Assembly: GCA_034678605.1 (NCBI GenBank)
Contig: JAXDBQ010000032.1
Span: 40,265-104,264 of the forward strand
DNA: 64,000 nt
Reading direction: 5' to 3'
Origin: Patescibacteria group bacterium
GTDB taxonomy: Bacteria; Patescibacteriota; Minisyncoccia; Minisyncoccales; UBA5738
The position numbers and the translations under genes were made by a program. A model generated the notes under the pieces. The model was given only the letters and a program-made list of their open reading frames with translations, did no database searches and had not been told where the DNA came from. This document shows positions 10,396 through 60,360 of this stretch, one piece after another (within the stretch, counting starts at the first letter, position 1; each line of letters begins with the position of its first letter).

Positions 10396-12924
10396 TTAGA
10401 TTTGCCACCATGTTCCCGAGTAGCCGAACAGCGACAGGAATACGCCCACGATCAGCCAGGCAAAGAACAGCAGGCCGTAGCCGATGCCGATTAGTTTCCA
10501 CCAGGAGATGACTTTTTGCTTTAAATCGGGCGTGGAAAAATTGGTGAAAAATATTCCGGCGGTGGCAAGCCCCAAAATGGGCAAAAGCCAAAACGACATT
10601 TGGAACAAGAATAAATTAATGATCTGCATCGCGTTGAGCAAAAGGTGCTTTGCGCCGCATTTTTCGCGGTCATCCCATTCGGTGTTGGGGTTGTCGTTGG
10701 TCATGCCGCACACGGCCATCACTGCCTGCCCTTTTTTGATTTCTTGGCCGCCGGCCACAAAATCAAAGCTCCAAATTTCGGGCGTGGCGCCCGCGTCTTT
10801 GCATTGCGCGTCCAAGCAGGCCAGCACGCTCCATTGGTATTTGCCCAAGCAGAACATCTGGTCGATGTCGTTGTCCACCATTATCGAAGTGTCTTTGACG
10901 ATCTTTTCCACTTTGGGCCCGGGAGCGCAATCTTTATTGGTTTCCTTTTCCGAAACCTCTTTGTATTCCAAGGCGACTTTGTAATAATGCGCGCCGGCCA
11001 CCGGCTGCCACGATAGGTTGTAAGCGATTTGGCTGTTGTCCAGCGTGCTGCTGGCATTGGCCGGCGTTTTGGAGGCACCCAGGGCCGCGGTGGCAAACGA
11101 AAATTCCGGGCCGGCCGGGCCGCAAAGCGCGGCGCTGGCGTCGGCGCAGGTTTGCACTTTCCATTTATAGGATTGTTTTTGGTTGATGGTCGGATAGTCC
11201 AGGGTGTATTGGTTGGTAGCAGTTGTGATCTTTTGGCCGCCAAAATCCAAAATATAGGCCTTGGCGCCGGCAACCGCTTCCCATTGCAATTCAACCGGCA
11301 TGGCTACATCTTTGGCATTGTTGGTCGGTTGCATGGACGCGGTTTTGGGCGCGCGGCCGGTGGTGCGAAAATACCACCAGTCCGACCACGGCTCGTTGCA
11401 CACCTCGCCCACCGGAATTGCCGGCCAGCAGGACTTGGCGCGCCATTTGTAGGCCGTGTCCAATTCCAGTTCGATGTTTTGTTCTTCGCCTTTGGAATTA
11501 TTGGCGTTGCCTTTGGTGAAAAGCACTTGCGAAGTGGTCACGCGGCGTTCGCCGTTGACCAATGAGGTCGCGCCGGCGCCGGAAATTTTTTGAATGTCAT
11601 AGCCATAGGAATTGGCGCCGTTGGGCGCTTGCCATTGCAGGCGGCCGGGAAGTTCGGTGAGCTTGGCGTTTTGGTTGTCGGCATAATTGTTGTCGTTTCC
11701 CGGCGACAAAAGCGCGGGCGCGGGAACGGTTTCGTTTTTATCGGTGAAGGTCCACAACTGCCCCCAATATTTGTCGCTTTGGGTGTTGCAGTTTTCGTCG
11801 CCGGCATTGGTATTGTTGAAACAGCGCCGCAATTGCCAGTAATAGGTGTTGTTTTTGGTGAACAGCGCCCGGTCGGTGTTGGGCAATTGAAGGTGCGACC
11901 ACCAATAGCAATCGATAGCGGGGTTGTTGGCCAAGCATTTAACGTTTCTTGGGGTTTTGGCCTTGATGGGATTGACTACGTCGGCCTTGCAGGTGTTGTT
12001 GGTTTGTTTTTCCAGATAATGGCAGGCCAGCGGGTTTTTCAGCGCCGGCGTGTCTTTTTTGAGCCAATTGGCCAAGTCGCTGAATTTGGCCGGGATTTGC
12101 GCGCCGGTGAGCACCAATTGGTTTTCGTTGGTGTAGACGCGCATTTGGTATGACAGCGAATAGGGCTCGTTTTCGTTATAGGGCTGTTTTTCTTTTGAGA
12201 CCTGCGCGTGGCACCAATCCAGCCGCAGGTTTTTGTAGGAAATATTTTTGGCGCCGGCCGGGCCGTTCCAATCGGGATCGTCAAAATTTATCGGTTCGGG
12301 CGCCGGGCTGGTGCGAAAGGTCCACCAAGTGGCGTTTTCTTCGGGCTGGCAATAGGAGCCGTTTTCCTTGCAACACGGCCGCACGCGCCAACGGATGGTT
12401 TTGTCGGAGTTGTAAAAGCAGGGGTAATACAAATCCCGAGCGTTGAACTCGTTGGTGGTGAGGATTCGGCGGAAAATGCCGCCTTTGCTTTCGTCGTCGT
12501 TTAGTTCGCCGTTTTTGTTTTCGATCTCCAAAAGATAGGAGCGCGCGCCATAGGCCTTGGAGGTGGCGGCTTGGTTGCCCTGGCGGCCGTCCCATTCCCA
12601 ATGGTATTGGCCGTTTTCCAATTGCCACAAGGCGATGTGATCCCAGGCCAGCACCACCGGCAAAGTAACTTCGTTTTCGTTGGCTTGTTTGGTTTTGTTC
12701 ACCGGATCATCCAAGTAATAATGGCCGGGCGGGGTTTTTAAACAAGCGTTGGCGCAAATGCAGGTGGTCACGTCAACTTCCACCACATTGGTCATGGATT
12801 GTTTTTGTTCGGGCTGGCATTGAATGCCGCCGGCGATTGTGGCGCCGCAACCGCTTTCGGCGATCGCCGCCGCCGGCGCGATCAACGCCAGCGCCAGCGC
12901 GAGTTTGAAAAAATTGGTTTTCAT
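10396..12924 (-). CDS. Giant secreted surface protein: signal peptide, tandem FN3-like disulfide-containing repeats, C-terminal VirB2/TrbC-like two-TM pilin domain
   Basis: 842 aa; signal MKTNFFKLALALALIAPAAAIA; about 6 repeats with Y.W.V..C....C....W.F.T signature; C-terminus LLPILGLATAGIFF...KLIGIGYGLLFFAWLIVGVF is paralogous to the C-terminus of 13136..16084. Confidence 0.7.
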   Translation of the reverse strand: MKTNFFKLALALALIAPAAAIAESGCGATIAGGIQCQPEQKQSMTNVVEVDVTTCICANACLKTPPGHYYLDDPVNKTKQANENEVTLPVVLAWDHIALWQLENGQYHWEWDGRQGNQAATSKAYGARSYLLEIENKNGELNDDESKGGIFRRILTTNEFNARDLYYPCFYNSDKTIRWRVRPCCKENGSYCQPEENATWWTFRTSPAPEPINFDDPDWNGPAGAKNISYKNLRLDWCHAQVSKEKQPYNENEPYSLSYQMRVYTNENQLVLTGAQIPAKFSDLANWLKKDTPALKNPLACHYLEKQTNNTCKADVVNPIKAKTPRNVKCLANNPAIDCYWWSHLQLPNTDRALFTKNNTYYWQLRRCFNNTNAGDENCNTQSDKYWGQLWTFTDKNETVPAPALLSPGNDNNYADNQNAKLTELPGRLQWQAPNGANSYGYDIQKISGAGATSLVNGERRVTTSQVLFTKGNANNSKGEEQNIELELDTAYKWRAKSCWPAIPVGEVCNEPWSDWWYFRTTGRAPKTASMQPTNNAKDVAMPVELQWEAVAGAKAYILDFGGQKITTATNQYTLDYPTINQKQSYKWKVQTCADASAALCGPAGPEFSFATAALGASKTPANASSTLDNSQIAYNLSWQPVAGAHYYKVALEYKEVSEKETNKDCAPGPKVEKIVKDTSIMVDNDIDQMFCLGKYQWSVLACLDAQCKDAGATPEIWSFDFVAGGQEIKKGQAVMAVCGMTNDNPNTEWDDREKCGAKHLLLNAMQIINLFLFQMSFWLLPILGLATAGIFFTNFSTPDLKQKVISWWKLIGIGYGLLFFAWLIVGVFLSLFGYSGTWWQI

Positions 12925-13049
12925 TTTATTTTTGTTTTTTGTTTCAATTTAATTATATCGCTTAAAAATCAAAACCGCAATTTTGAAACAAATTTAATCA
13001 ATTGCCGGGACAAGACGAACGTTAGTATTTGGATTCAAATGCTGTTGAC

Positions 13050-13088
13050 GGGGTCTAACCGCCCGCGAGTACTCGGGGGTTAGACCCC
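13050..13088. other. GGGGTCTAACC...GGTTAGACCCC hairpin element (family 5), reverse orientation
   Basis: 11-bp perfect stem with palindromic loop; related copies at 31381 and 60383. Confidence 0.55.
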
Positions 13089-13135
13089 AAAAAATGCTAA
13101 TACTCGGTTTGCTTTGACAAGCTATTGCTATAAAA

Positions 13136-16084
13136 TCACAATAGCGCGTTCCAGCTGGCGGCGGCGCTGTAGCCGGCAAATTGCATTAATAGTGAAACGA
13201 TGATCCAGGCGAAGATCAAGATCAAATAGCCGATGCCGATCTTGCGCCAGGTGTCTTTAATTTCGGCCAAAAGCTTTGATTTGTCTTGTGCCAGATAAAA
13301 AATTCCGCCGGTGATCGCGCCGGCGATTGGCAACAGCATCAACGCCAATTTGAAGATCACAAAATTAATGATCACCTTGGCCAGCAAAAACAAATGTTTT
13401 ATTTGGCAGGGCTCTTTTTCGTTGTATTCGGGCGTGTTGATTTTGTCGTCATAGTTTTGGCCGCAAACCATCAAGCCGGCGGTTTGTTTTTTTTCGATGA
13501 TCGAAAATGTTTGGGTGGCTTTTTTCGCGCCCGAACTCAATGATTTGCATTGGGAATCAAACGCCGGCTGAACCGAAAAGGAATATTGGCCGCCGCAATA
13601 TTGCGAGCTGCCGGTCTCTTTTGATTTGATCGCCAAACTGGTGCCGGCAACGCATTTTTCTTTATACTCATCGTTGAACCATTTTGGATCGCAACTGGTG
13701 CTGTCTTCGCCGCCGGCCACTTGAACGCTCACTTGATAATATTTGGCCGCGCCGCTCCAGCTCAAGCTTGGCGGAAGCTGGTTGATTTGATCTTCTGGCG
13801 CCAATCCCGTTGGCTTGTCAAAGTCCGCGGTTTTGAACGGCAGGATGTTGGTTTTGGCCGCACCGCAAATTTGTCCGGCCGCGTCGGCGCAAGTTTTCAC
13901 CGTCCAGTCGTATTTTTGATCAAAGGCCGAATAGTTAAACGAATATTGCGCGGCGGTGAGTACCAATTCGTTTTTGGGCGCGTCCGGGCCGGTGATCTTG
14001 ACGCGATAAGAACCGGCGCCGGGAACGCTTTCCCATTCGAGCGCGGCCGTGGGTGCGCTGGTTTTGGCGGTGGCGGTGAGCGGCGGACGGCCGGTGGTGT
14101 AAAAATAATTTGCCGGGCTCAACGACTTGCTGCAAATTTCATCGATCTTTTTGTTGGCCATGGGTATTGACGGCCAGCAGGATTTGACTTGCCATTGGTA
14201 GAGCGTGTCGAGTTTTAATTTTACCCGTCCGGGGTCGTTTTCTTGCGCCGGATCTTTGTCGGTTGTTAATGATATTAAAATTTGCGACACGGTCGCGCGC
14301 CGGCCTTGGTCGGCGGTATAAGTTTTATCTTTCTCAAAGATGCTGGCGCCGGTCTTGGCGTCTTTGATGTCGTAAAGGAAAGAGTTGGCGCCGCAGGGGG
14401 CCGTCCATTGAATGCTTCCGCCCTCTCCCACCAATCCCACCGGATCGCGGTTGCTTTTGTTTTTGTTGTTTGGCGGCGCCAACGGCGCGGGCGCGGTCAA
14501 ATTGGTGTCGGTGAACTTTTCGCCGGAGAATTTCCATTTTTGGCCGTAATCTTCATTATTGTAAGTGGCGCAAAACGGGAATTGCTTTTCGTCACCTTTT
14601 TTACCGGAAATGACATCAAAGCAAACTTTGGTTTGCCAAGAATAGATAAGATTCCCGTCGGCGTTGCCGGAAAAAAGGTTGCGGATCTTTTCTTGGTCAA
14701 AATACGGATGGAAATTCTGGTTTGGCTCAATAATCTCTTTTAAGTAGCTTGTGAACGGCACGCTTTCCGGTCTGCAGGTGCCGTCGTTTTGCAGTTCCAA
14801 ATAGTGGCACGACTCGCCGTCGCGTTGGCTTTCGGGCTGGTTGAAGGCGTTGAGGGCTTTGTTTTTCACTCCGGCCAATGATTTTGAAAGGTAATCGGAA
14901 AAGGCCTGGCTCAAATTGTTTGACCAAGAGCTGCTTGATAGCGTTTTTTGCATTATTGATTGGTAGTCCGACGGGCTTGTCCCGCCGATACTTCCCAAAA
15001 GATCCATCAGCGACCATGTTTCATTGAATTTAACGCGCATCTGATAATTGGCGGCATAATCAGCTTGGCTGGCATTATATTTTTTTGAGAAACGCGCGTT
15101 GTCGTCGGTCATCAATTTGGCTTTGCACCAATAGGGCTTGGCACTGCAAAAATGAACATCGGTTAATTTATCCGGGCCGTTCCAATCGGGGTCTTGGGTT
15201 GGATTCTTTTTGTTCGGGTGATTGTTGTCAACAATTCCCAGCGGTTCGGGTCCCGGGCCGGTGGTGAATGTCCACCACCCTTCGTCGTTTCCCATGGGTT
15301 TGCAGGTTGATTCTTCGCCGTTGGCGTCGCAGCAAGGTCGCACGCGCCATTGGTAGGCGGTGTTGGTGTTAAAAAAACATGCTCCCCCGTCCTCGCGGGA
15401 ATTAAACCCATCATTGATGCCGTCGTTATTTTTGTCGGCGATCACTTTGAAAAATATTTTGCCGCCGCCCAGCGCCTCGATGTTGTTGGGGTTGATGGTT
15501 TTGTCAATGTGCAGATTCGCGTCGCCGTTTTTGTATTCCTCATATTTGATCTCCACCCGGTAGCTTTGCGGGCCGCTGTCCACTTTTGTCGGTCCGTTTT
15601 TATATATCGGCGTTTTGTAAGGGTCTTTGTTTTTCCAACCGGCAATATCGTTCCATGCCAAAACCACCGGCAAAGTGATTTGGTTTGATTTTGTTTGCCG
15701 GGTATGATTTTTGGGATCGTCATAATACAAGGGGTTGGCGCTTGAATCAAACGGGGCTTCCAAGCATTCTTTTTCGCATTTGCACACGCCATAGTCGCTG
15801 CCGGTTTTGGCGACTTGCCAATCTTTGCAATATTGCATTGGTGGCCGGATGATCTTGCATTCTCCCGGCTTGCCTCCGGGAACTTCTCTTAATTCTTTTA
15901 TGAGCGAGCTTTTTCCATTTTGGTTGTGGCATTTACTATCATTGATTTGCTCTTCGTAATATTTTATATGTCCCGAACATGCTTTAGCTTCATTGCTAAA
16001 ACCAAAAATTATTACTGTTGAAAACAGCATAATCGAAAACGCGCGGAAAAAAATAGTTTGATTGCTTTTTAAAAATCGGGTCAT
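13136..16084 (-). CDS. Giant secreted surface protein, paralog of 10396..12924 (FN3-like Cys repeats plus C-terminal VirB2-like pilin domain)
   Basis: Track ORF 13136..16120; likely start MTRFLK at 16084; shared motifs RVRPCC...WWTFTTGPGPEP, DPDWNGP; C-terminus KHLFLLAKVIINF...LLPIAGAITGGIFY...KIGIGYLILIFAWIIVSLL. Confidence 0.7.
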   Translation of the reverse strand: MTRFLKSNQTIFFRAFSIMLFSTVIIFGFSNEAKACSGHIKYYEEQINDSKCHNQNGKSSLIKELREVPGGKPGECKIIRPPMQYCKDWQVAKTGSDYGVCKCEKECLEAPFDSSANPLYYDDPKNHTRQTKSNQITLPVVLAWNDIAGWKNKDPYKTPIYKNGPTKVDSGPQSYRVEIKYEEYKNGDANLHIDKTINPNNIEALGGGKIFFKVIADKNNDGINDGFNSREDGGACFFNTNTAYQWRVRPCCDANGEESTCKPMGNDEGWWTFTTGPGPEPLGIVDNNHPNKKNPTQDPDWNGPDKLTDVHFCSAKPYWCKAKLMTDDNARFSKKYNASQADYAANYQMRVKFNETWSLMDLLGSIGGTSPSDYQSIMQKTLSSSSWSNNLSQAFSDYLSKSLAGVKNKALNAFNQPESQRDGESCHYLELQNDGTCRPESVPFTSYLKEIIEPNQNFHPYFDQEKIRNLFSGNADGNLIYSWQTKVCFDVISGKKGDEKQFPFCATYNNEDYGQKWKFSGEKFTDTNLTAPAPLAPPNNKNKSNRDPVGLVGEGGSIQWTAPCGANSFLYDIKDAKTGASIFEKDKTYTADQGRRATVSQILISLTTDKDPAQENDPGRVKLKLDTLYQWQVKSCWPSIPMANKKIDEICSKSLSPANYFYTTGRPPLTATAKTSAPTAALEWESVPGAGSYRVKITGPDAPKNELVLTAAQYSFNYSAFDQKYDWTVKTCADAAGQICGAAKTNILPFKTADFDKPTGLAPEDQINQLPPSLSWSGAAKYYQVSVQVAGGEDSTSCDPKWFNDEYKEKCVAGTSLAIKSKETGSSQYCGGQYSFSVQPAFDSQCKSLSSGAKKATQTFSIIEKKQTAGLMVCGQNYDDKINTPEYNEKEPCQIKHLFLLAKVIINFVIFKLALMLLPIAGAITGGIFYLAQDKSKLLAEIKDTWRKIGIGYLILIFAWIIVSLLMQFAGYSAAASWNALL

Positions 16085-16091
16085 TAGATAA

Positions 16092-16910
16092 TTATAATTC
16101 AAAAGAGCGGGCAAGGCCAATCCAATTTTCCACGGCCAGGTCTTGCGCCCGGCAATTTCGCGGCAGATCGTTTTTGGCCAGCCATTCGATTGCTCGTTCG
16201 CGGCTGATATTCAAGCCGCCGGCCAGATTGCCGGCCAATTGTTTGCGCGGGTGGGCAAAGCCGGCTTTGGCGATCTTAAAGAACCGATCGATGAATTCTT
16301 TTTTGCACCCCTCCCCTGCTTTCGGAAACAGGTCGAGGCGCAGGATCGCGCTGTCGACTTTGGGCACGGGCCAAAAACAGCCGCGCGAAATTTGGCCGAT
16401 GATATTTGGCGCGGCATAGAACTGCACCGACAATGCCAACAAGTTCATTCGCGGCGGCTGGGCGCAAATTCTTTGCGCCACTTCTTTTTGCGCGATCACC
16501 GCCATTGATCGCGGCGGATTGCCGCTTTCCAAGAATTTGCGGATCATGGGCGCGGCGGCGTAGAAAGGCAAATTGGCAACGATCTTATAAGGCGGGATGA
16601 TCTTGCTTTCGTTGAATTTGAGCGCGTCGGCATTGATGATCTCGACATTTATCGCGTCGGCGAATTCTTTTCCGAGGATTGCGGCCAGCTCGCGGTCTTT
16701 TTCCACGGCAATCACGCGGTTGCCGGTTTTGGCCAATTCCCGCGTCAAATTGCCGGTGCCCGGGCCGATCTCCAAAATCGTTTGGTTATCTCCAAGCTCG
16801 GCGGCGGCGATCAATTTTTTGATCACGCCGATTTGGTTCAAAAAATTTTGCCCCAGCCGTTTTTTGGGTTTGACGGATGGTTTTTGGTCGTTTGTGTTTA
16901 TCATGATCAT
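16092..16910 (-). CDS. rsmA: 16S rRNA (adenine1518/1519-N6)-dimethyltransferase
   Basis: KKRLGQNFL, LEIGPGTGNLT SAM-binding motif; 272 aa. Confidence 0.9.
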   Translation of the reverse strand: MIMINTNDQKPSVKPKKRLGQNFLNQIGVIKKLIAAAELGDNQTILEIGPGTGNLTRELAKTGNRVIAVEKDRELAAILGKEFADAINVEIINADALKFNESKIIPPYKIVANLPFYAAAPMIRKFLESGNPPRSMAVIAQKEVAQRICAQPPRMNLLALSVQFYAAPNIIGQISRGCFWPVPKVDSAILRLDLFPKAGEGCKKEFIDRFFKIAKAGFAHPRKQLAGNLAGGLNISRERAIEWLAKNDLPRNCRAQDLAVENWIGLARSFEL

Positions 16911-20613: not shown

Positions 20614-23583
20614 TCAATTCGGCAATTGATCGAAAAGCTTCACCAAAGAATCGTTTGAAGTTGAAAACGCGAAATATTTTTGTTCGTAAATCGCCCATGC
20701 CAGGGCGAAATTATCGCCGGCCGGCTTGAAGTCGACCGATTTGTATTCGATTCCTTTGGCGGTTTGCGAAATTTCAAATTTTAAAATTTCTTTTTCGTCT
20801 TGGGGCTTACGATCAAGGCGGCTGAAAAAGTAATTCGTGTCGGCAATTGCGGTTTTCTCCCAGGCCGAAAGAGCGGTTTTCAATGTTCCGGGATTGGCGG
20901 CGGCGGCCACGAACCCAAGTCGGTTTTTGCCGTTTTTGGCGTAAATGAAAAGATTGATTTCATCGCCCGTCGAGTTGTAAAAAGCGGCCGGCGGGTTGAT
21001 TTTGTACGCGCTTAAAAATTGCCTCACTCCGATTTTGGCGCCGGTAACCTTGTTTTTTATTTCAACTCCATGATAGCCATCTTCCATTTTTTTGAGCAGA
21101 TTCGGGTACAGCAAATTCGGGATATTGGAAACATCGTCCAGATAAATGGTTATCAATGAAATTGTTGAGACCGGTGATGTGTTTGCCGGCTCGGGTTCTT
21201 TTTCGGCGGGAGTTTTTTTGATCGCGGTTGTTTTTGCCGGCGGTTCGGCCTTTTTGGTCGCCGAGGGGGCGCTGTTTTTGCTCAATATCATCACAAGAAT
21301 AACCCCGAATAGTCCGGCCAAGACCAAAATAACCATCATTCTTGCCAGCAGTTTATTGTCGCCGGATTTTTTTTGAACCGGCAAGGGATCGATTTCGATT
21401 TTTTTGCCATATTCCCTAACGGCGGCCGGGTTTGCCGAGGGGACGGTGGTTTTTTTGATTTGTTGCCATCGATTTTCCAAATTCCGCGCCAATTCCGGCG
21501 GCTGCTCCAAGGATTTAAATTCCGGCGCGGCCGTTTTTTCATTTATTCCGTTTGATATCGTTTCTTTTTTAACATTTTGAGTTTCCGGAGCCGCCGTTGG
21601 TTTTTCTTTGGGCAAATTGAGCCGGTCGAGCGAAGGAATGTTTTTGGTCGGCTGGGATTCGATTTTTTCCCGATAAAAAGCCGAAGCGTCCGATGCCAAA
21701 CTTTTTTTATCGAGCGGTTTTTCTTTCGAAGAATTATTTGCCGCGACCGCCGCCGGAGTTGCTTTTTGGATTTCGTTTTGAATGTTTTTTATCGCAAGAC
21801 CGTCGGTTCCGTCTGTTTTCGCGGCCGTTTTTTGTTGCGGTTCGCTTTTTGCCGTATCGCGCGGTTTCAAAAGATCGTTTGCCATTGGGACATTTTTTTT
21901 GGCTTCAATGGCGGTTTCATGGGTCTCGTTATCTCGCGGTAGCGGATCATTTTTTTTCGCCGTTTCTTTTTTTGTTTGATCGGGAACCGCTTGCTTTACG
22001 GGATCTTCAAGTTCGGACGCGGTTTGCTTTTCTTCGGGTTGAGTTTGGATGATGTCTTTTAGGACATCTTTTTCGTATTTTATTTGATTTTCATCCAAAA
22101 GGCCGCCGATTAGATCGCGGATTTGGCGTACCGGCAAGTTTTCTTTTTCGAGCGCGGCTTCTTTTGTCGCGATTTCATTTTGGACGCGGTCTATTTTCGC
22201 GTCGAGAATGCCGATTTTATTTCGCAATGATTCGCTTTTAGCGGCAATTTCCTTTAGACTTTTTTGATTTTCCCATTTGAGGCGGACGATGGATTTCAAT
22301 TTTTCGCCGATATCCCAGCGCTGCCGTTCGGCGGCTCTTTTTTCGGCGGGATCGGCGGCCGTTTTTTCCATGTTTTCGGCTTTTTCAAGTTCTATGTTTA
22401 TTTCGTTTTCTTCTTTCGCGGCTTTGGCGAGGTCGGCTTCTTTTTCTTTTTGGGAATTTTTTGCCGATTCAAAATCCGGCAGCAGCGCCTCTTTTTCTTC
22501 GATGATTTTTAATATTTCTTCTTCAAGCCGGTTTTTTTCCGCGGCGAAATTCGCGATTTTTTCTTTTCCGCCAATGTCTTTTATTTTTGATTTTATGAAT
22601 TCCGCTTGGCTGTCTTTGGCCATTATTTCGGCAACGATGTTTTCCGTTTCGGCGGCGATCTTGAAAACGCGGTCTTCCACGTCCCAGCGTTGCTTTTCGA
22701 TTTTTTTACGTTGTTCTTCGTTTTCCCATATTTTTTCTTTTACCGTTTTTTCCTGTTCAGTCGGCTGGTTTTCTTTGACCTTTGTTTTTTCCGCCTCGAT
22801 TTTGCTTTCGATTTCTTTTTCCAATTCTTCAATGGCGGCCAATTCGCTTTTTTTTATCATCTCGATCTTGCTTTCCAGCGCGGTCCTTTTTTGTTCCAAA
22901 GGCGCTTTTTGAGCGGGGATTTCCAAAAGCTGTTTTTCAAGATCGCTTTTTTTTTGCTTTAGTTTGGCGGCAAGCTCTTTTAAAATCGCGGGAAGGTCGC
23001 GGTGGGCGTCAACGATAATCTCCGGAGCGGCGGAGTCGAAGGGATTGACGGCAAACGCTTCCTTTTTTTGCCGCGCCAAATCCTGGAGTTTCTTTTTTTC
23101 GCGCTCTTCTTCCAGCAGGATCAACCGTTGGCGCGTTTCTTCCTGGATTCGATTTTTTTCCGCTTCTTGGCGTTTTTTTTCTTCCGCGATCTTTTCTTGC
23201 CGTTTTGTTTCTTTTTTTTGTTCTTCGGCCAAAAGCGCCGCCGCTTCCCGTTTTTTTTGTTCTTCGGCGCGCGCTTGTTCTTCGGCCGCGGTTTTTTCTT
23301 TTTGGGCGGCATCCTTTTCGATGTTTTCAAGCGCTTTTTCCAGGGATCGCGATTTTTCGGCCGCGACGGTTTCTGTTTTTTTTGGCGTTGGCGCGGCGGT
23401 CGTTTTTTGTACGATTGGCGATAGCCCTTTTCGGGCCGGGTTTATTGGAAGCCCCAACGACTCGCGCAGGGAATCGTTTAATCCTTGTATGTCAAAATCA
23501 ACCGCCTCCGGTTTTTCGGAGTCTTTGCTTTTGGCAACCGCCTTTGCCAAAGTTTGGATGGCGTTTTTTTTGAATTTCAGCAT
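20614..23583 (-). CDS. Large membrane protein: N-terminal about 640-aa K/E-rich coiled coil, single TM, about 300-aa C-terminal domain; hypothetical
   Basis: 989-aa uninterrupted ORF; TM MMVILVLAGLFGVILVMIL; plus-strand ORFs over the same DNA are F/S-rich antisense artefacts. Confidence 0.6.
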   Translation of the reverse strand: MLKFKKNAIQTLAKAVAKSKDSEKPEAVDFDIQGLNDSLRESLGLPINPARKGLSPIVQKTTAAPTPKKTETVAAEKSRSLEKALENIEKDAAQKEKTAAEEQARAEEQKKREAAALLAEEQKKETKRQEKIAEEKKRQEAEKNRIQEETRQRLILLEEEREKKKLQDLARQKKEAFAVNPFDSAAPEIIVDAHRDLPAILKELAAKLKQKKSDLEKQLLEIPAQKAPLEQKRTALESKIEMIKKSELAAIEELEKEIESKIEAEKTKVKENQPTEQEKTVKEKIWENEEQRKKIEKQRWDVEDRVFKIAAETENIVAEIMAKDSQAEFIKSKIKDIGGKEKIANFAAEKNRLEEEILKIIEEKEALLPDFESAKNSQKEKEADLAKAAKEENEINIELEKAENMEKTAADPAEKRAAERQRWDIGEKLKSIVRLKWENQKSLKEIAAKSESLRNKIGILDAKIDRVQNEIATKEAALEKENLPVRQIRDLIGGLLDENQIKYEKDVLKDIIQTQPEEKQTASELEDPVKQAVPDQTKKETAKKNDPLPRDNETHETAIEAKKNVPMANDLLKPRDTAKSEPQQKTAAKTDGTDGLAIKNIQNEIQKATPAAVAANNSSKEKPLDKKSLASDASAFYREKIESQPTKNIPSLDRLNLPKEKPTAAPETQNVKKETISNGINEKTAAPEFKSLEQPPELARNLENRWQQIKKTTVPSANPAAVREYGKKIEIDPLPVQKKSGDNKLLARMMVILVLAGLFGVILVMILSKNSAPSATKKAEPPAKTTAIKKTPAEKEPEPANTSPVSTISLITIYLDDVSNIPNLLYPNLLKKMEDGYHGVEIKNKVTGAKIGVRQFLSAYKINPPAAFYNSTGDEINLFIYAKNGKNRLGFVAAAANPGTLKTALSAWEKTAIADTNYFFSRLDRKPQDEKEILKFEISQTAKGIEYKSVDFKPAGDNFALAWAIYEQKYFAFSTSNDSLVKLFDQLPN

Positions 23584-50174: not shown

Positions 50175-50543
50175 TTAGGCCTCTTGCTTTGGTTTCGGTT
50201 CCACTCTTTTCAGGCGCGATTTGCGGCCTTTGGCGGTGCGGATATAGAAGATCTTGGCGCGGCGGACTTTGCCCACTTTAATCACTTCGATCCGGTCGAT
50301 GATGGGCGAGTGGATCGGGAAGATTTTTTCCACGCCCACGCCCGAGGCGATCTTGCGCACCGTGATGGCCGCGCCGGTTTCGTTGCCGTGCTTGCGGCAC
50401 AGCACCAGACCCTCAAACATCTGGATTTTGTCCTTGCCTTTGTCTTTATATTTTTGATAGACGCGCACGGTATCGCCGGCCTTGATGGCGGGCAGGTCGG
50501 TTTTCTTGACGGCTTGCGCGAACTCTTCGATTTGCTTTTCCAT
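50175..50543 (-). CDS. rplS: 50S ribosomal protein L19
   Basis: 122 aa; IEVIKVGKVRRAKIFYIR, GDTVRVYQKYKDKGKDKIQMFEGLV. Confidence 0.95.
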   Translation of the reverse strand: MEKQIEEFAQAVKKTDLPAIKAGDTVRVYQKYKDKGKDKIQMFEGLVLCRKHGNETGAAITVRKIASGVGVEKIFPIHSPIIDRIEVIKVGKVRRAKIFYIRTAKGRKSRLKRVEPKPKQEA

Positions 50544-50623
50544 GTTGTTTGATGTTCAAGTATTGGATTTTTACCTTGATAACTATAAACTATAAACTGA
50601 ATTTTTGCAAGAGCAAAAATTTG

Positions 50624-50697
50624 TGGGCGTATCCCGATTCGAACGGGAGACCTTTTCAATGTCAATGAAACGCTCTAACCAGCTGAGCTATACGCCC
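50624..50697 (-). tRNA. tRNA-Val (anticodon GAC), CCA encoded
   Basis: GGGCGTATAGCTCAGCTGGTTAGAGCGTTTCATTGACATTGAAAAGGTCTCCCGTTCGAATCGGGATACGCCCA. Confidence 0.85.
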
Positions 50698-50787
50698 GGT
50701 GAATAGTTGATGAGTTAATGAGAAATGAGCCGGTGAGCGAAGCGCATTCTCTCATAAGCTCATTACCAATTTACTCATTTCTACCTC
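50698..50787. repeat. Family-3 repeat arrays
   Basis: gaatagttgatgagttaatgagaaatgagc ... ctcataagctcattaccaatttactcatttctacc. Confidence 0.6.
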
Positions 50788-51148
50788 TGGTGTGCATGGA
50801 TGGGATCGGACCATCGGCCGCAGCTTTATGAAATTGTTGCTACAATTTCCGCCAAAAATAATAATTAATTTGGGCGGTGGGCGCAGATGGACTCGAACCA
50901 TCGACCCCGGCTTTATGAAACCGTTATAGCGGTTTCCGCCATTATTTTAAAAATTCTGGTAGTGGGCGTGGAAGGGATCGGACCTTCGGCCCCCACTTTA
51001 TAAGAGTGGTGCTCTAACCACTGAGCTACACGCCCAGAATTTTTAAAATAATGTCATAAGAGCCGTGCTCTAACCGACTGAGCTATGCGCCCAAATTAAT
51101 TATTATTTTTGTCATAAGAGCTGTGCTCTACCACTGAGCTACACGCGC
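50788..51148 (-). other. Nested split-tRNA locus: outer tRNA halves (5' half about 51111..51148, 3' half about 50788..50853) enclose a middle tRNA (5' half about 51053..51092, 3' half about 50872..50940), which encloses an intact tRNA (50963..51035); each insert is flanked by a perfect inverted repeat
   Basis: Middle pair: acceptor GGGCGCA/TGCGCCC and anticodon stem CGGCT/AGCCG are complementary across the pieces; outer pair: anticodon stem CAGCT/AGCTG and acceptor 6/7 bp; inner IR ATTATTTTAAAAATTCT/AGAATTTTTAAAATAAT (17 bp); outer IR AAAAATAATAATTAATTTGG/CCAAATTAATTATTATTTTT (20 bp). Confidence 0.55.
50963..51035 (-). tRNA. Intact innermost tRNA, anticodon UAU (Ile-AUA reading), CCA not encoded
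   Basis: GGGCGTGTAGCTCAGTGGTTAGAGCACCACTCTTATAAAGTGGGGGCCGAAGGTCCGATCCCTTCCACGCCCA; anticodon stem CCACT/AGTGG, loop CTTATAA; T-loop TCCGATC slightly atypical. Confidence 0.6.
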
Positions 51149-51240
51149 AAGACGTAGTCAATGAGTTGTGAGAAATGAGTTGATGAAAAAATACGGGATT
51201 TTGCATTTACTCAATACTCATCAACTCGCCACTCATCAAC
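51149..51240. repeat. Family-3 repeat arrays upstream of the nested tRNA locus
   Basis: gtagtcaatgagttgtgagaaatgagttgatg ... actcaatactcatcaactcgccactcatcaactat. Confidence 0.6.
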
Positions 51241-53062
51241 TATTTTTGATTCCTACCAGTTTTTCGTATTCTTCTTTTTCAATGGTTTCTTTTTCGATCA
51301 GGCGATTCGCGATCTTTTCCAATGTGTCGCGTTTTTCGGCCAAGATCTTTTGCGCGGTGGTTTGGCCTTCTTCGATGATTTTGGCGGTTTCGGCGTCGAT
51401 CTTGGCCGCGGTTTGTTCGGAATAATTGCGGTTGGATTCGAATTCCTGGCCCAAAAACGCCAGTTCTTCTTTTTCACCAAAAACGATCGGCCCCAGCGGC
51501 GACATGCCGTATTCTTTCACCATTTTGCGGGCGATCTTGGACGCCACTTTCAGATCGTTTGACGCTCCGGTGGACGATTGGCCAAAGATTATTTTTTCGG
51601 CGGTAAGCCCTCCCAGCAAGGTGGCAATTTCGGCGACAAAGTCGCTTTTCGACCGCAGTTTCTTTTCTTCGGCCGGGGTTTTTAAGGTGTAGCCGGCGGC
51701 CATTCCCCGTGAGATGATGGATATTTTGCGCACCGGCTCGGTTCCCGGTAAAGAAGATGACACCAGCGCGTGGCCGGATTCATGATAGGCGGCGATTTTT
51801 TTTTCTTCAACTGATAACAAATGGCTTTTCTTTTCCGGCCCCAGCATCACTTTTTCGATTGATTCCAAAAATTCTGTCTGAAAGATTTCGCTTTTGTTTT
51901 GTTTGGCCGCCAATAGTGCGGCTTCGTTGACCACATTGGCGATGTCGGCGCCCGAAAATCCGGGGGTTCGTTCGGCTACTTCCCGCAAGTTCACGTCTTT
52001 GGCCAAGGGTTTTTGCCGGCAATGAATGGCCAAGATCGCTTCGCGGTCTTTGGCGTCGGGCAGATCCAAAATGATGCGCCGGTCAAAGCGTCCCGGCCGC
52101 AGCAGCGCCGGATCAAGATATTCGGGCCGGTTGGTGGCGCCCAAAACGATGATGCCCTCGCCGCTTTCAATTCCGTCCATTTCGGCAAGGATCTGATTGA
52201 GGGTTTGTTCGCGTTCTTCGTGGCCGCCGGTGACGCCCACGCCGCGGGTTTTGCCGATGGAATCAATTTCGTCAATGAAAATTATGGCGCGTTTTACTTT
52301 GTGGGCTTGTTCAAACAAGTTGCGCACCCGGCTGGCGCCCACGCCCACGAACAATTCGATGAATTCCGAACCGGAAATGGAAAAGAAAGGCACATTGCCT
52401 TCGTTGGCGATGGCTTTTGCCAGTAGGGTCTTGCCGGTGCCGGGCAAGCCCATCAGCAGTACGCCGCGGGGGATTTTGGCGCCCATTTTCAGGTATTTTT
52501 CGGGATTTTTTAAAAAATCAATGATTTCTTGCAACTCCTCTTTGGCCTCTTTGAGGCCGGCAATATCGTTGAAGGTGGTTTTTTGTTTTGGATTGCCGCC
52601 TAAAAGGCGGGTTTTGGCTTTGGTAAAGTCGAATGCTTGCATGGCGTTGCCTTTGGCCTGGCGAAAGATCAGCGAAAACACGAATAAGATCAGCAGCAAC
52701 GGCAAGAAGCTGTAAAGCAGGGGCGCCAACCAAATCCAGACGCTGTCGTCGTTTTTTGATTCAAAATTCACCGCGGCGATCTTTTCCTTGTCCACTCCCA
52801 AATTGACCAAGGTTTGCGACAGGGATGAGTCGGCTTCTTTTTTGGCGATGGTGGTGGAAGCGGCCGCGTCGTTGTATTCGACGGTTAATTTTTCGCCGGC
52901 GATTTGGACATTCTTGATCTTGCCTTCGTTGATCTCGGCCGCCAAGCGCGAGAGGGAAATTTCCTCGGGTTTTTGGGAGTTTTGCGAAAACAACGAAAAC
53001 AGACCGGCCAAACCGACCAAAAAAATAACTACCATCGCGAAATTTTTGAAAAAGCCCTTCAT
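51236..53062 (-). CDS. ftsH: ATP-dependent zinc metalloprotease FtsH
   Basis: 608 aa; two N-terminal TM; AAA Walker [14 protein letters not shown]; HExxH as HESGHA. Confidence 0.95.
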
Positions 53063-56725: not shown

Positions 56726-56823
56726 CCTGATCTTCCGGTTCTTTTTTTATATAAACGCGCGAAGGGCTTCAATTATTCGCCAAATTTGCTACATTCAAAG
56801 TGTGTAAAATCTTATTTATTGTT

Positions 56824-59800
56824 ATGGAACAAAATTTCAATCAAAGAGAGGAAAGGACAATTAAATTTTGGAAGGAAAATAAAATTTTTGAAAAGTCGGT
56901 GAAGCGTGCCCCTAAACGCAAAAAAGAATTCGTTTTTTACGAGGGGCCGCCCACGGCCAATGCCAAGCCGGGGATCCATCATGTGGAGACGCGGGTGTTT
57001 AAGGACATGGTTTGCCGCTACAAAAACATGGCCGGTTTTCGCGTGCCGCGGCGCGCCGGCTGGGACACGCATGGCCTGCCCGTGGAACTGCAGATCGAGA
57101 AGAAATTGAATTTGCGCAACAAAAAAGAGATCGAAAAATTCGGCATCAAGGAATTCAACAAAGAATGCCGGGATTCGGTGTTCGAGCAGATCGGCGAGTG
57201 GCGCAATTTAACCGAGCGCATCGGCTATTGGCTGGATTTGGACAATCCCTATATCACCTACGACGCCCGTTATATGGAGTCGGTGTGGTTTATTTTGAAG
57301 CGGGCTTGGGAAAAGAAGTTGTTGTTCCAGGATTACAAAGTGATCCCTTATTGTTCGCGGTGCGGCACCGCGCTTTCCAGCCATGAAGTGGCGCAGGGTT
57401 ACCAAAAAGTAAAAGACCCGTCAGTGTTTGTCAAGTTCCGGATATTGAACCCGGAGGTCAAGAACGCGGCGCTGCTGGTGTGGACCACCACGCCTTGGAC
57501 TTTGCCGGCCAACGTGGCCGCGGCCGTGAATTCGGAAATGGATTATGTGAAAGCCAAGCCGAAAGAAGGAAGCGGCGAAGCGCTGATCCTGGCCAAAAGC
57601 CGATTGGAAATATTGGGCGAGGACTATGAGGTTGTTGAGGAAATGAAAGGCCAAAAACTGGTTGGTTTGCGCTACCAGGCGGTTTTTCCGGTCGAGCGCG
57701 AATCCGAAAAAACGATCTACAAAGTGATCGCCGCGGATTTTGTGTCGGCGGTCGACGGCAGCGGCATCGTGCATATCGCGCCGGCATTCGGCGCCGAGGA
57801 CATGGAGGTGATCCGCGGCCAAAACAAGCAGCTGCGGGAAAGCGGCCAACCGGAGTTTCCGGTGATCTTGAATGTTGCCGAAGACGGCGGCTTCACTTTG
57901 GAGGTGGCCAAGTGGGCGGGGATGTTTGTGAAAGATGCCGATCCGTTAATAATCAAGGATCTGGAAGCGCGCGGCTTGCTGTTCAAGACCGAGCCCTATG
58001 AGCACGATTATCCTTTTTGTTGGCGGTGCAAGACACCGCTATTGTACTATGCCAAAAAGAGCTGGTTCATCAAGATGACCGCGTTGCGCCAAAATTTGCT
58101 GGAAAACAACCAAAAGATCAATTGGGTGCCGGCGCATTTAAAGGAAGGGCGCTTTGGCGAATGGCTGCGCGAAGTGAAGGATTGGGCCATCTCGCGCGAC
58201 CGCTATTGGGGCACGCCTTTGCCGGTGTGGAATTGCGCTTGCGGCAACATTGAAGTCGCCGGTTCTTTGGGCGACCTGCTGGCCAAAAAATATTCGGCAA
58301 ACCGCTATTTCATCATGCGCCACGGCGAATCGCGCCGCCAGATTAAAAAGGTCTCTTCGTGCTGGCCCGAGGCCGAGCCGCTGCCGCTCACGGAAAAGGG
58401 CAAAAAAGAAGTTGCCGCGGCGGCCAAAAAATTGGCCAAGGAAAAGATCGATCTGATCATTGCCTCGGATATCTTGCGGACAAAGGAAACCGCGCAAATT
58501 GCGGCGCAGGCAACCGGCGCTAAAGTTGTTTTTGACAAGCGCTTGCGCGAGCACAATGTGGGCGAATTCAATGGCACCGATCCCAAGAATTTTTGGGAAT
58601 TCGCCAACGCGAAAATTGACCGGTACGCGGCCAAGCCCAAGGGAGGGGAAAGCTTGGTGATGGTGCGCAAGCGGATGTATGAATTTTTGGCCGAGATCGA
58701 CAAAAAATACCAAGGCAAAACAATTTTGCTGGTGGGGCATGAATTGCCGTTCACGGTTTTGGAGCATACTCTGAAGGGGATATCGCTGCCGGAGATCATC
58801 GAAAGCCGCTATTCGGGCAAGATCAAAAGAATTGTCACGGCCGCGGCCAAAAAGATCGAATTCAAGCAGCTGCCATTGAACGATGACGCTGAAATCGATC
58901 TGCATCGGCCGTTCATTGATGGCGTCAAGCCGGTTTGCGCCAAATGCGGCGGGCAAATGGCGCGCGCGCCCGAAGTGCTTGATTGCTGGCTGGATTCGGG
59001 TTCGATGCCCTTGGCCCAGGCCTATTGGCCCTTTAAAAAAGGCGATTCGCCGGCCAAGCCGGTAAAATTGTTCCCCGCGGATTTTATTTCCGAAGCCATC
59101 GATCAGACGCGCGGCTGGTTCTATACTTTGCTGGCCGTGTCCACCACCATGGGGTTTGGCGCGCCCTACAAGAATGTGGTGTCGTTGGGGCATGTTTTGG
59201 ATCAAAACGGCGAGAAAATGTCCAAATCAAAGGGCAATGTGGTCAATCCATGGGAGATGGTGCAAAAATACGGCGCCGACGCGGTGCGCTGGTATTTTTA
59301 CACGGTCAATGATCCGGGCGACCCCAAGCTTTATAACGAAAAGGATTTGGAGTTGGCGCAAAAGAAATTTCTGCTCACTTTTTGGAATTGCTATGTGTTC
59401 TTGAAAACCTACGCGCCCGCAATAAAAGCGCCGGCGACGATCGCGCCGGTCAATGTGCTGGACAAATGGATCGTGTTGCGGCTTCATTCGGCGTTGGCCG
59501 AAATCACCGATTGTTTAGAAAGATATGATATCACCCGTGCCGCCCGCAAAATAGAGGATTTTACGATCAATGATTTGTCGCTGTGGTATGTGCGCCGGTC
59601 GCGCCGGCGGCTGCAGCAGCCGCAAAGCCCGGCCGAACTAAATCAGGCGGCCAAGGTTTTTGCCTATATTTTGGCGAATTTGGCCAAAACCAGCGCGCCG
59701 TTTGTTCCGTTTTTGAGTGAGGAGATTTGGCAGGGATTGTCGGGAAATGGTTTTTCCAAATCCAAGTCAGTGCATTTGGAACCATGGCCCGCGGCAAATA

Positions 59801-60360
59801 AAAAAATGATCGATTCGGAATTGGAAAAGCAGATGACGCGGGTGCGCGAACTCACCGCGCTGGTTTTGGCCGAGCGGGCCAAGCATGGCGTGAAAGTGCG
59901 CCAGCCGCTGGCCAAGCTTGCGGTCGGCGGCCCTACCTTCGCCAAGGCTACGGCGGGCGAAGAAATAAAATTGGGCGATGAGTTGCGCGATCTATTGGCT
60001 GGCGAAGTGAATGTCAAAATCATTGAATTTGATCCGGAGCAAAAAACCGCGGTCGAGATCGATTGGAATATTACGTCTGAATTGAAAGAAGAAGGCAATA
60101 TGCGCGAAGTGATGCGCCAGATCCAGGAATTGCGCAAAACCGCCAAATTCACCCCGCAAGACAAGATCACCATTTACGTCCAAGCCGAAAGTGAGTTAAG
60201 GGCCGCGATCGAAAAACATCGGAAAATGATCGTCAAAGAAACCAAGGCCGCCGCGATTAAATTCGAAAAGCCGGCCAAGCCCGCGGCGCAAATCGAAGTC
60301 AAAATTGACGGTGTCTCTTTATGTCTGGGAATTAAGAAATTGTCATCAAAGTTGTTTTAA
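56824..60360 (+). CDS. ileS: Isoleucine--tRNA ligase (type-2) carrying an inserted histidine-phosphatase (PGAM-like) domain
   Basis: Track ORF 56800..60360; editing domain TTTPWTLPAN; WAISRDRYWGTPLPVWNC; DCWLDSG; KMSKS; the about 210-aa insert (about 58290..58910) has RHGESRR and LLVGHELPF catalytic-His motifs. Confidence 0.9.
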   Translation: MEQNFNQREERTIKFWKENKIFEKSVKRAPKRKKEFVFYEGPPTANAKPGIHHVETRVFKDMVCRYKNMAGFRVPRRAGWDTHGLPVELQIEKKLNLRNKKEIEKFGIKEFNKECRDSVFEQIGEWRNLTERIGYWLDLDNPYITYDARYMESVWFILKRAWEKKLLFQDYKVIPYCSRCGTALSSHEVAQGYQKVKDPSVFVKFRILNPEVKNAALLVWTTTPWTLPANVAAAVNSEMDYVKAKPKEGSGEALILAKSRLEILGEDYEVVEEMKGQKLVGLRYQAVFPVERESEKTIYKVIAADFVSAVDGSGIVHIAPAFGAEDMEVIRGQNKQLRESGQPEFPVILNVAEDGGFTLEVAKWAGMFVKDADPLIIKDLEARGLLFKTEPYEHDYPFCWRCKTPLLYYAKKSWFIKMTALRQNLLENNQKINWVPAHLKEGRFGEWLREVKDWAISRDRYWGTPLPVWNCACGNIEVAGSLGDLLAKKYSANRYFIMRHGESRRQIKKVSSCWPEAEPLPLTEKGKKEVAAAAKKLAKEKIDLIIASDILRTKETAQIAAQATGAKVVFDKRLREHNVGEFNGTDPKNFWEFANAKIDRYAAKPKGGESLVMVRKRMYEFLAEIDKKYQGKTILLVGHELPFTVLEHTLKGISLPEIIESRYSGKIKRIVTAAAKKIEFKQLPLNDDAEIDLHRPFIDGVKPVCAKCGGQMARAPEVLDCWLDSGSMPLAQAYWPFKKGDSPAKPVKLFPADFISEAIDQTRGWFYTLLAVSTTMGFGAPYKNVVSLGHVLDQNGEKMSKSKGNVVNPWEMVQKYGADAVRWYFYTVNDPGDPKLYNEKDLELAQKKFLLTFWNCYVFLKTYAPAIKAPATIAPVNVLDKWIVLRLHSALAEITDCLERYDITRAARKIEDFTINDLSLWYVRRSRRRLQQPQSPAELNQAAKVFAYILANLAKTSAPFVPFLSEEIWQGLSGNGFSKSKSVHLEPWPAANKKMIDSELEKQMTRVRELTALVLAERAKHGVKVRQPLAKLAVGGPTFAKATAGEEIKLGDELRDLLAGEVNVKIIEFDPEQKTAVEIDWNITSELKEEGNMREVMRQIQELRKTAKFTPQDKITIYVQAESELRAAIEKHRKMIVKETKAAAIKFEKPAKPAAQIEVKIDGVSLCLGIKKLSSKLF

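Follow-up and report, generated by a model that had tools for sequence, protein, structure and literature searches.

A nest of three transfer RNA (tRNA) genes for isoleucine, all with the anticodon UAU, occupies positions 50788-51148 on the minus strand of a 64,000-nucleotide stretch of the Patescibacteria contig JAXDBQ010000032.1, referred to here as the window (W). Each of the two outer genes is split in its anticodon loop by an insert which itself holds a complete tRNA-Ile(UAU). The nest is real, is reproduced across independent assemblies and is evolutionarily dynamic, and it appears to stand outside every intron and mobile-element family examined and to be undescribed. The explanation favored here, to which an even chance is given, is that of a cargo-rescued insertion cassette, whereby only the innermost tRNA would work, and recombination would let the nests gain or lose levels and take the place of the resident gene.

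Anatomy of the nest

The outermost, middle and innermost tRNA-Ile(UAU) genes of the window are termed A, B and C, and the 361 nucleotides (nt) are tiled without gaps by 16 parts, all on the minus strand. These begin with the 5' half of A (51114-51148; 35 nt), which opens with the acceptor strand GCGCGTG, ends in CUCUUAU at position 36 and is orthologous to the intact A-type tRNA-Ile of two relatives, L100 and L102 (L-numbers label the contigs and loci of relatives that were compared). There follow a junction triplet, GAC (51111-51113), and the 18-nt 5' arm of the level-A stem, AAAAATAATAATTAATTT (51093-51110), a perfect complement of 50854-50871. The 5' half of B comes next (51056-51092; 37 nt, from GGGCGCA to CUCUUAU), then a second GAC (51053-51055), placed by the frame alignment described below, and the 17-nt 5' arm of the level-B stem, ATTATTTTAAAAATTCT (51036-51052), a perfect complement of 50941-50957. 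In the center lies the uninterrupted gene C (50963-51035; 73 nt), called by ARAGORN and by the Rfam tRNA model at 71.8 bits; it has no stem mismatches and is the sole intact gene among the three. The return path consists of the 5-nt trailer of C, CTACC (50958-50962), in part complementary to the 5' end of C; the 17-nt 3' arm of level B (50941-50957), pairing with 51036-51052; a conserved 26-nt hairpin module, GGCG GAAACCG CTATAA CGGTTTC AT (50915-50940); the 3' half of B, AA AGCCG ... TGCGCCC A (50878-50914); its 6-nt trailer, CCGCCC (50872-50877); the 18-nt 3' arm of level A (50854-50871), pairing with 51093-51110; the conserved 26-nt module of level A, GGCG GAAATTGT AGCA ACAATTTC AT (50828-50853); and the 3' half of A, AA AGCTG ... 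CATGCAC A, together with an encoded CCA (50788-50827). The original prediction, made from the letters of the window, had listed the tRNA halves, the inverted repeats and the complete tRNA in this order, and all of them are present; the hairpin modules had escaped it.

The inverted repeats that were said to bound the inserts are also borne out. The outer repeat has an AT-rich core of 18 base pairs (bp), which lengthens to 24 perfect bp through pairing of the opening five bases of B (GGGCG) with the trailer sequence CGCCC (50872-50876), while the inner one has a perfect core of 17 bp that grows to 25 bp if 2 mismatches are allowed. Perfect inverted repeats did not exceed 12 bp in 300 first-order Markov resamples of the region, against the 24 bp observed. 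A 376-nt RNA from the locus is predicted to fold into nested cloverleaves at -144.6 kcal/mol (z = -7.7), and none of 100 shuffled sequences did as well. The trailers CGCCC (50872-50876) and CACTACC (50958-50964) complement the first 5-7 bases of their own cargo tRNA (51088-51092 and 51029-51035), so that the arm helix can extend into the acceptor stem and compete with it.

The separated halves still match one another. As had been predicted, the halves of B are complementary, and all four of their stems are perfectly paired; the halves of A pair throughout except at C2.A71, the one acceptor position of seven that had been counted as unpaired, with a single wobble at G5.U68. The breaks do lie in the anticodon loop, more exactly between U36 and A37, although the 3' break falls at TTTCAT|AA and not, as first proposed, at TTTCATAA|AGC. 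The exon ends CUUAU and AA thus join into the normal loop CUUAUAA, with the uninterrupted orthologues as reference. In the native locus ARAGORN and Rfam recognize C alone, but when the halves are joined in silico at U36|A37 (the junction of A or B then reads, for example, ...CAGCUCUUAUAAAGCUG...), ARAGORN calls every copy tRNA-Ile(tat); joined B has no stem mismatch, and joined A has one mismatch and one G.U pair.

A conserved frame forming a predicted three-way junction

Each insert is non-coding, measures about 150-175 bp (about 65-75 nt without its cargo) and has a fixed order: GAC, an AT-rich arm of 17-23 nt, a complete tRNA-Ile(UAU), a short C-rich trailer, the complementary arm, and a module of 26-27 nt ending in TTTCAT. 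Eight insert frames were aligned with the cargo core replaced by a GAAA linker, and the RNAalifold consensus is a predicted three-way junction. Helix 1 combines the anticodon stem with UUAU/AUAA, helix 2 combines a C-G pair with the arms, and helix 3 is the hairpin GAAAnnG...CnnUUUC. The triplet GAC at level A is the same in all eight frames; its G and A are unpaired at the junction, and its C pairs with the first G of the module. Level A of L110/L113, which lies outside the eight-frame alignment, has GAT in place of GAC.

The pairing is maintained while the sequence changes. Both sides have changed in 22 of the 45 pairs, and 96.2% of the cells are paired, compared to 36-47% after displacement of the partners by 1-3 columns; in 500 shuffles the observed values were never reached. 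A 5' arm pairs with its own 3' arm at a mean of -18.2 kcal/mol and with other arms at -3.4 kcal/mol, and the 5' arms of different frames are 43-76% identical. Between the level-A arms of W and L101 there are two substitutions and a 3-nt indel, each mirrored in the partner arm. Against this variable background, TTATGAC, GAAA and TTTCATAA are invariant in all eight frames, including level A of L082, whose 5' shell half is destroyed (the interrupted copies are here called shells), and this argues for some sequence-specific function in place. The module, GGCG-GAAAnnG-loop-CnnTTTC-AT, is sited between each 3' arm and 3' half; its GAAA and TTTCAT are fixed, while the middle of its stem co-varies (CCG/CGG vs TTG/CAA). 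At the junctions, CTT[AT]GAC...TTTC[AT]AAAG, the sequence allows a 2-bp AT duplication or none. Elsewhere in the 64-kb window neither the module motif nor the arms were found.

The term terminal inverted repeat element, used in the original prediction, is only loosely apt: the repeats are sub-terminal and differ between copies, and in this they act like a structural stem rather than a transposase-binding end.

In L082 (2895-2945, minus strand) an extra 35-nt segment separates the decayed outer 5' half from the level-A junction. This segment has a hairpin of its own (AAGAACTC-GCAA-GAGTTCTT), and CTTATGAC occurs for a second time at its end; it may be what survives of an additional level.

Inserts at the orthologous locus of relatives

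The nest lies downstream of ftsH (51236-53062, minus strand, as the nest), which served as the synteny anchor, and upstream of tRNA-Val(GAC) (50623-50697, minus strand). A scan of 185,579 species genomes for the module motif gave 31 matches, one of them real (L029), and a scan of the JGI metagenomes gave 43, of which five were real (L074, L077, L078, L082 and L092); viral contigs yielded chance matches only. All true matches of the genome and metagenome scans fall at a single locus, composed of ftsH, tRNA-Ile, tRNA-Val(GAC) and rplS. Contigs encoding close FtsH relatives added the nests L101, L108/L109, L110 and L113, and the same architecture is found in independent JGI, ENA and NCBI assemblies derived from different samples and pipelines.

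Comparison of orthologous loci, which had been suggested as a check, shows the inserts to be absent or present once, twice or three times. Four lineages have no insert and carry a tRNA-Ile(UAU) with the loop CTTATAA: L100 (the complete Nealsonbacteria genome DGGOD1a), L102, L104-106 and L111/112. One insert is present in two lineages (L101 and L108), two in the window and L082, and three, arranged as A(B(C(D))), in L113. This series at one orthologous site argues that inserts were added stepwise between U36 and A37; of the two explanations originally offered, it backs successive insertion, while a tRNA-bearing intron is disfavored. The presence of three AUA-reading tRNAs, which had been called unusual in itself, needs the context that tRNA-Ile(UAU) is the normal single resident gene here across the clade.

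The closest relative by FtsH is L101 (90% identical to that of the window), where B is intact; the split B of the window matches it at all but 1 of 74 positions. The A-type gene (acceptor GCGCGTG/CACGCGC) is the outermost shell in W, L101, L074 and L113 and is intact in L100 and L102. By FtsH similarity, nested L110 is closest to empty L111 (89%) and nested L074 to empty L104 (86%); nested and empty lineages are thus interleaved, which argues that inserts were gained or lost repeatedly. In L074 and in L113 consecutive levels are identical, arms included. All eight aligned frames, as well as the L110/L113 level seen from its 5' side only, enclose a complete tRNA with the same anticodon, and none of the frames found is without cargo.

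The tRNA genes themselves turn over at this locus, where at least three types of Ile(UAU) and at least three of Val(GAC) occur among close relatives. The tRNA-Val(GAC) types are X in W, L082, L077 and L102, V2 in L101, L108, L074 and L114, and V3 in L100, L104 and L111; three distinct types at one syntenic site point to repeated gene replacement.

The counts of 3' halves disagree between contigs of the same or related populations, some of which end within identical repeats. L074 (5040-5335) and L078 (14330-14617) have two 5' halves and a tRNA with one 3' half, and L092 (7080-7216) has two 3' halves; a further discordant stretch is L077 (1-180) with L113. Either short-read repeat collapse or real unequal recombination may account for this. 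The contig L029 (DAOSDI010000038.1) is labeled 'Candidatus Pacearchaeota archaeon'; it is syntenic with the bacterial locus (the same seven tRNAs and rplS) and matches L074 across the 3' module, 3' half and flank compared, and by these features its archaeal label is probably wrong.

Decay of the interrupted copies

Defects are confined to interrupted copies, whereas the parsed intact copies have no stem mismatches (the units of L074 were read by eye). Shell A of the window has C2.A71, and shell A of both L101 and L074 has C27.A43. The outer shell of L108 carries A32, G73 and an 85-nt hairpin inserted in the D-loop, and the outer 5' half of L082 is destroyed, its acceptor stem being unrecognizable. 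L110 and L113, one population sampled twice, differ at 4 positions in about 4820 flanking nt, and the 37 nt of the shell-B 5' half hold 2 more differences, G10A and A14C, both at conserved D-arm positions. Between W and L101 the 3' half of A is 70% identical, near the 65% at four-fold degenerate ftsH sites. The interrupted copies accordingly do not display purifying selection as functional genes. The constant presence of cargo is relevant here as well, since a spliced intron would have no need of a complete tRNA with the same anticodon, whereas an insert that kills an essential single-copy gene needs one. In the helices G.U and A.C mismatches are about equal, in numbers that are small and of low power, with no sign of filtering at the RNA level; together with the 3-nt indel mirrored in both arms, this hints at maintenance at the DNA level.

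A related arrangement involves the neighboring gene. In L114 (3335-3600, plus strand), and identically in L115, a tRNA-Val(GAC) sits inside two tRNA-like shells, X and Y, while the tRNA-Ile is intact; shell X is orthologous to the tRNA-Val body of the window, and the nest fold has z = -5.6. These Val shells have perfect acceptor, D and T arms, and their anticodon arm is a continuous helix sharing CACCTT / GAAA-AAGGTG. No 7-nt loop with U33 can be built from them, and splicing could thus not turn them into decoders.

Two further features of these tRNA copies may be recorded. Position 55 is nearly universally U (pseudouridine 55) in tRNAs; the T-loop TCCGATC, with C at this position, occurs in the window at 50963-51035 and 50791-50827 (minus strand) and in L104, L111 and L114. 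Since C55 is found in intact genes also, it is not a feature of decay. A separate hairpin repeat family, with arms GTAGTGAATTTTCGR ... YCGAAAATCTACTAC, or CATTGAATTTTGGA in L082, is located at about 2815-2900 of L108, about 2955-3030 of L082 (minus strand) and about 3105-3275 of L114. It forms the D-loop insertion of the outer shell in two lineages, occurs twice upstream of the L114 tRNA-Ile, and looks like a repetitive extragenic palindrome or miniature inverted-repeat transposable element (REP/MITE).

Comparison with known introns and mobile elements

In an Rfam cmscan of 50500-51400, at both gathering and E<=10 thresholds, only tRNA was matched. The literature searched contains no description of tRNA genes nested within tRNA genes, and the statement in the original prediction that neither of its explanations matches a described bacterial arrangement holds against that literature.

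Group I introns bear a terminal G at their 3' end and are about 200 nt or more in length; one interrupts the anticodon loop of the cyanobacterial tRNA-Leu(UAA). The nest insert has no match to a P3-P9 core in the cmscan, its three equivalent splice registers (GAC...TTTCAT, TGAC...TTTCA, ATGAC...TTTC) end in U, A or C and never in G, and its frame is too short, at about 65-75 nt without and about 150 with cargo. Group I introns are described in Patescibacteria, in tRNA-Asn/Asp at 35/36 (PMC13011429). They share with the nest a bacterial host of the same phylum, the interrupted anticodon loop and the property of being missed by standard tRNA finders, yet the nest insert always holds a whole tRNA gene and its interrupted copies decay. 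Group II introns, which have a six-domain structure and usually a reverse-transcriptase open reading frame (ORF), are rejected as well: there is no Rfam match and no ORF, and the insert is far too short.

Archaeal and eukaryal introns of the bulge-helix-bulge (BHB) type, cut by EndA and joined by RtcB, resemble the nest in being short anticodon-loop inserts with ends that pair with loop nucleotides and with a normal loop after joining. The BHB comprises two 3-nt bulges on opposite strands with a 4-bp helix between them, and the cuts are symmetric in the bulges. The nest differs in its bacterial host, its position at 36/37 and its three-way junction, where the consensus leaves 2 nt (GA) unpaired on one side and 3-4 on another. 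By manual reading, cuts at U36|G and U|A37 would require U31-U34 to pair with UUUC, which is impossible. No EndA-type splicing endonuclease was seen among the roughly 27 window proteins scanned (64 kb of genome), and no paper in the literature searched links such an enzyme to Patescibacteria. Split, tri-split and permuted tRNA genes, as in Nanoarchaeum equitans, Caldivirga maquilingensis and Cyanidioschyzon merolae, likewise have halves united by a long helix of complementary flanks beside the anticodon loop; in the nest, by contrast, the host is a bacterium, a BHB is absent, and the halves, which stand in cis around a complete tRNA, appear non-functional on the evidence.

Among small ribozymes, the hammerhead core runs CUGAUGA, helix II, GAA, helix III, H and the cut. 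Mapped manually, the insert offers CUUAUGA without the essential G5, has 3-4 extra nt before GAA, and has 7 nt in place of H17. None of the known small ribozymes gave an Rfam match, though the long cargo insert could hide one from the models. K-turn and box C/D motifs, checked by hand, do not fit.

Phages and integrative and conjugative elements that integrate at the anticodon loop or T-loop of tRNA genes are kilobases long, encode an integrase and restore the gene as a hybrid, with one partial direct repeat left behind. As in the nest, they target a tRNA gene, whose function is saved by tRNA sequence that the incoming DNA brings along; the nest insert, however, is roughly 170 bp of non-coding DNA, brings a whole tRNA, keeps both target halves around it and is recursive. 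The processing stalks of ribosomal RNA (rRNA) operons, and the intervening sequences of 23S rRNA excised by RNase III, provide another parallel, in that a long inverted repeat flanks and closes a structured RNA as a precursor stem, but these flank rRNA and are not inserted in a gene of the same kind; we know of no tRNA example of processing stalks with recursive nesting. MITEs are likewise small and non-coding, with inverted repeats and with presence or absence among close relatives. An identity of the insert with an inverted-repeat transposon or MITE is nevertheless rejected. The arms stop short of the insert ends, by 3 nt on the left and by 26-27 nt on the right, they are copy-specific and each pairs with its own partner only, one locus per genome was found with no dispersed copies (window and genome/metagenome scans), the cargo is an essential gene, and any target duplication is at most 2 bp.

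Other candidate elements were rejected on the sequence of the ends. For IS200/IS605-like ends, with target TTAT and right end TCAT, there is a small hairpin at the right end only, sited 2 nt from the end and not about 10 nt inside. A TA target duplication of the IS630/mariner type is excluded by the junction sequences, and a longer one, with the module 3' strand CGGTTTCAT as a diverged exon end CGGCTCTTAT, is inconsistent across frames. No transposase was seen among the window proteins scanned. As a -35 box for the cargo tRNA, TTATGAC has the wrong spacing to the tRNA start, and the scan gave no promoter on the tRNA strand; as a terminator, the hairpin module has no T-run. An ORF of 204 amino acids lies in L102 (4954-5568, plus strand) between ftsH and the intact tRNA-Ile, overlapping the tRNA start by 10 nt. 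Its product has a GLYWGEG motif and an N-terminal DNA-binding-like region (weak PHROG matches); it has no Pfam, PDB or meaningful PHROG match, and no homologue was found in the window or the nest-bearing loci, on which grounds the idea of a homing endonuclease was dropped.

Possible origins of the nests

In the cassette explanation, the insert would land exactly between U36 and A37 of tRNA-Ile(UAU), and the host would tolerate the disruption since a functional copy of that tRNA arrives with the insert. As the cargo offers the same target, it could be hit again, which would yield nests two to four tRNAs deep. On the tRNA strand a scan of the nest gave neither promoter-like nor terminator-like internal sites, and the whole nest is consequently probably a single transcript. 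In this transcript the arms and the paired outer halves would close each level into a three-way junction, and would thereby insulate the innermost cloverleaf, which may fold independently. RNase P and 3' processing could then free it, and the outer halves would stay unjoined and decay slowly. Depth probably changes when shell halves and cargo, homologous over about 35 nt on each side, undergo homologous recombination or gene conversion. A level could be added by ectopic gene conversion or by a site-specific activity, which would explain the identical consecutive levels of L074 and L113, and the reverse event could remove one level precisely. Such precise removal would account for the finding that B is intact in L101 yet split in the window and in the L110/L113 lineage, whose FtsH is 84% identical to that of the window and thus more distant than that of L101. 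Loss of the shell would leave the incoming tRNA as the resident gene, a course that fits the number of Ile and Val types observed.

Several points weigh against this explanation. No enzyme or insertion mechanism was identified; the arms, being sub-terminal and different between copies, are unlike transposase-binding ends; and the frame motif occurs only at this locus, in the window and in two whole-collection scans, so that nothing points to a mobile family with scattered copies. Across frames, 19 junction positions never vary in spite of the divergence of the arms, which the cassette model leaves unexplained. The middle shells of W, L074 and L082 are still perfect, tRNA B is 99% identical between W and L101, and A shows compensatory stem changes at 28:42 (A-U vs G-C) and 51:63 (U-A vs A-U). 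Copy numbers with identical levels (L074/L078/L092 and L113/L077) may also be distorted by short-read assembly.

A tentative second explanation, considerably less probable, is a new class of bacterial tRNA intron, in which the three-way junction would be a splicing signal at 36/37 and the intron would encode another tRNA. A protein endonuclease would cut after U36 and before A37, with re-ligation by, for example, an RtcB-type ligase, or else a new small ribozyme would act. The window transcript would then yield three functional tRNA-Ile(UAU), the inner ones freed by RNase P and RNase Z, and the deepest nests up to four; spread of the intron would take place through homing into the cargo that it carries. 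The precise and constant insertion point suits this idea, as do the canonical loop and the tRNA-Ile(tat) calls obtained by splicing in silico, the invariance of TTATGAC, GAAA and TTTCATAA beside strongly co-varying helices, the probable co-transcription of the nest, and the perfect middle shells with some compensatory changes in shell stems. Patescibacteria are, in addition, unusually rich in tRNA introns (PMC13011429). Yet the insert has no BHB motif, no group I, group II or ribozyme match and no terminal intron G, and a tRNA with the same anticodon in every intron would be superfluous for splicing. Conserved tRNA positions of the shells acquire defects about as fast as expected under neutrality, the junction motif is kept at level A of L082, where a functional tRNA is impossible, and the Val shells of L114 have no anticodon loops. 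No ligase or endonuclease was seen among the window proteins scanned, which represent about half of roughly 59 ORFs. If the outer genes were spliced, they would constitute a bacterial tRNA intron type beyond groups I and II, with intron-encoded tRNAs and a new splicing activity. If they are not, the cassette would represent a new way to tolerate an insert in an essential single-copy gene, by bringing a replacement instead of removing itself, and would give rise to recursive nests; it would also open a path by which tRNA genes are replaced horizontally, with the conserved tRNA halves as homology arms.

It is unlikely that the shells are functional tRNA-like scaffolds, serving the processing, stability or folding of the inner tRNA, or decoys for anticodon nucleases or for integrases that target tRNA genes. 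Such a role would agree with the paired acceptor, D and T arms of most shells, with the L114 Val shells, in which these arms are perfect and a continuous helix replaces the anticodon arm, and with a junction motif conserved independently of decoding capacity. Many close relatives, however, live with a plain single gene, the shells have defects at G10, A14, A32 and G73, one 5' half is destroyed, and no specific benefit can be named.

Very improbable is the use of an alternative splice register, with cuts after U33 and before the C of ...UUUCAUAA, which would give the outer genes a CAU anticodon on an Ile-type body. The product would be a tRNA-Met, or a tRNA-Ile2 after lysidine modification, and the nest would encode different decoders. 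The invariant TTTCATAA that ends every frame does supply CAUAA, and CU with CAUAA forms the canonical loop CUCAUAA; this invariance is also explained by pairing (GAAA/UUUC and UUAU/AUAA), U34-A35-U36 of the interrupted 5' halves, unneeded in such a model, are invariant too, and all arguments against splicing hold equally.

An assembly artefact, a chimeric or repeat-collapsed contig, scarcely merits belief: related contigs L029, L077, L092, L110 and L113 do break inside the locus, and the two 5' halves with one 3' half in L074 and L078 suggest collapse where levels are identical, but the window levels differ (3' halves 68-73% identical) and have unrelated arms, which leaves no repeat to mis-join, complete nests occur in L101, L108/L109 and L082 from independent samples and pipelines, and exact complementarity is confined to the two partner arms of each helix. 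The concern about mis-assembly that accompanied the original prediction can thus be largely set aside. The remaining probability is reserved for mechanisms not thought of. Since tRNA finders report the innermost gene only, and short-read assemblers break or collapse the locus, nests are probably under-counted in genomes of the Candidate Phyla Radiation (CPR).

Genomic setting

The window is bacterial. The closest FtsH relatives come from sources named Minisyncoccales, Candidatus Nealsonbacteria and Candidatus Pacebacteria (Patescibacteria/CPR); the FtsH of the window itself has no exact match on record. Besides FtsH, the window encodes a Mur ligase, RecG, PNPase, a bacterial IF-2 and ribosomal protein L19, as well as a CCA-adding enzyme, which fits with most tRNA genes at the nest locus having no encoded CCA. 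Imperfect hairpins of repeated TGATGAGT/ACTCATCA-like words flank the nest at 50702-50782, between A and tRNA-Val, and at 51169-51246, between ftsH and A. The leader between ftsH and the tRNA is 87 nt long in the window, compared to about 20 nt in relatives.

The window opens with conjugal-transfer genes, one for a VirB4-like ATPase and one for a pilin-like protein; after them come three very large ORFs (842, 994 and 989 amino acids) with no Pfam match. The coordinates of this group are 7-2028, 7691-8956, 10396-16120 and 20614-23583, all on the minus strand. The isoleucyl-tRNA synthetase (56800-60360, plus strand) has a His_Phos_1 (histidine-phosphatase) domain inserted at residues 504-666, within its catalytic domain, and the same inserted-domain architecture is on record for relatives L099, L102, L104, L110 and L113. 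Its gene lies near the nested tRNA-Ile locus; it is on the strand opposite to ftsH, about 3.7 kb upstream of that gene.

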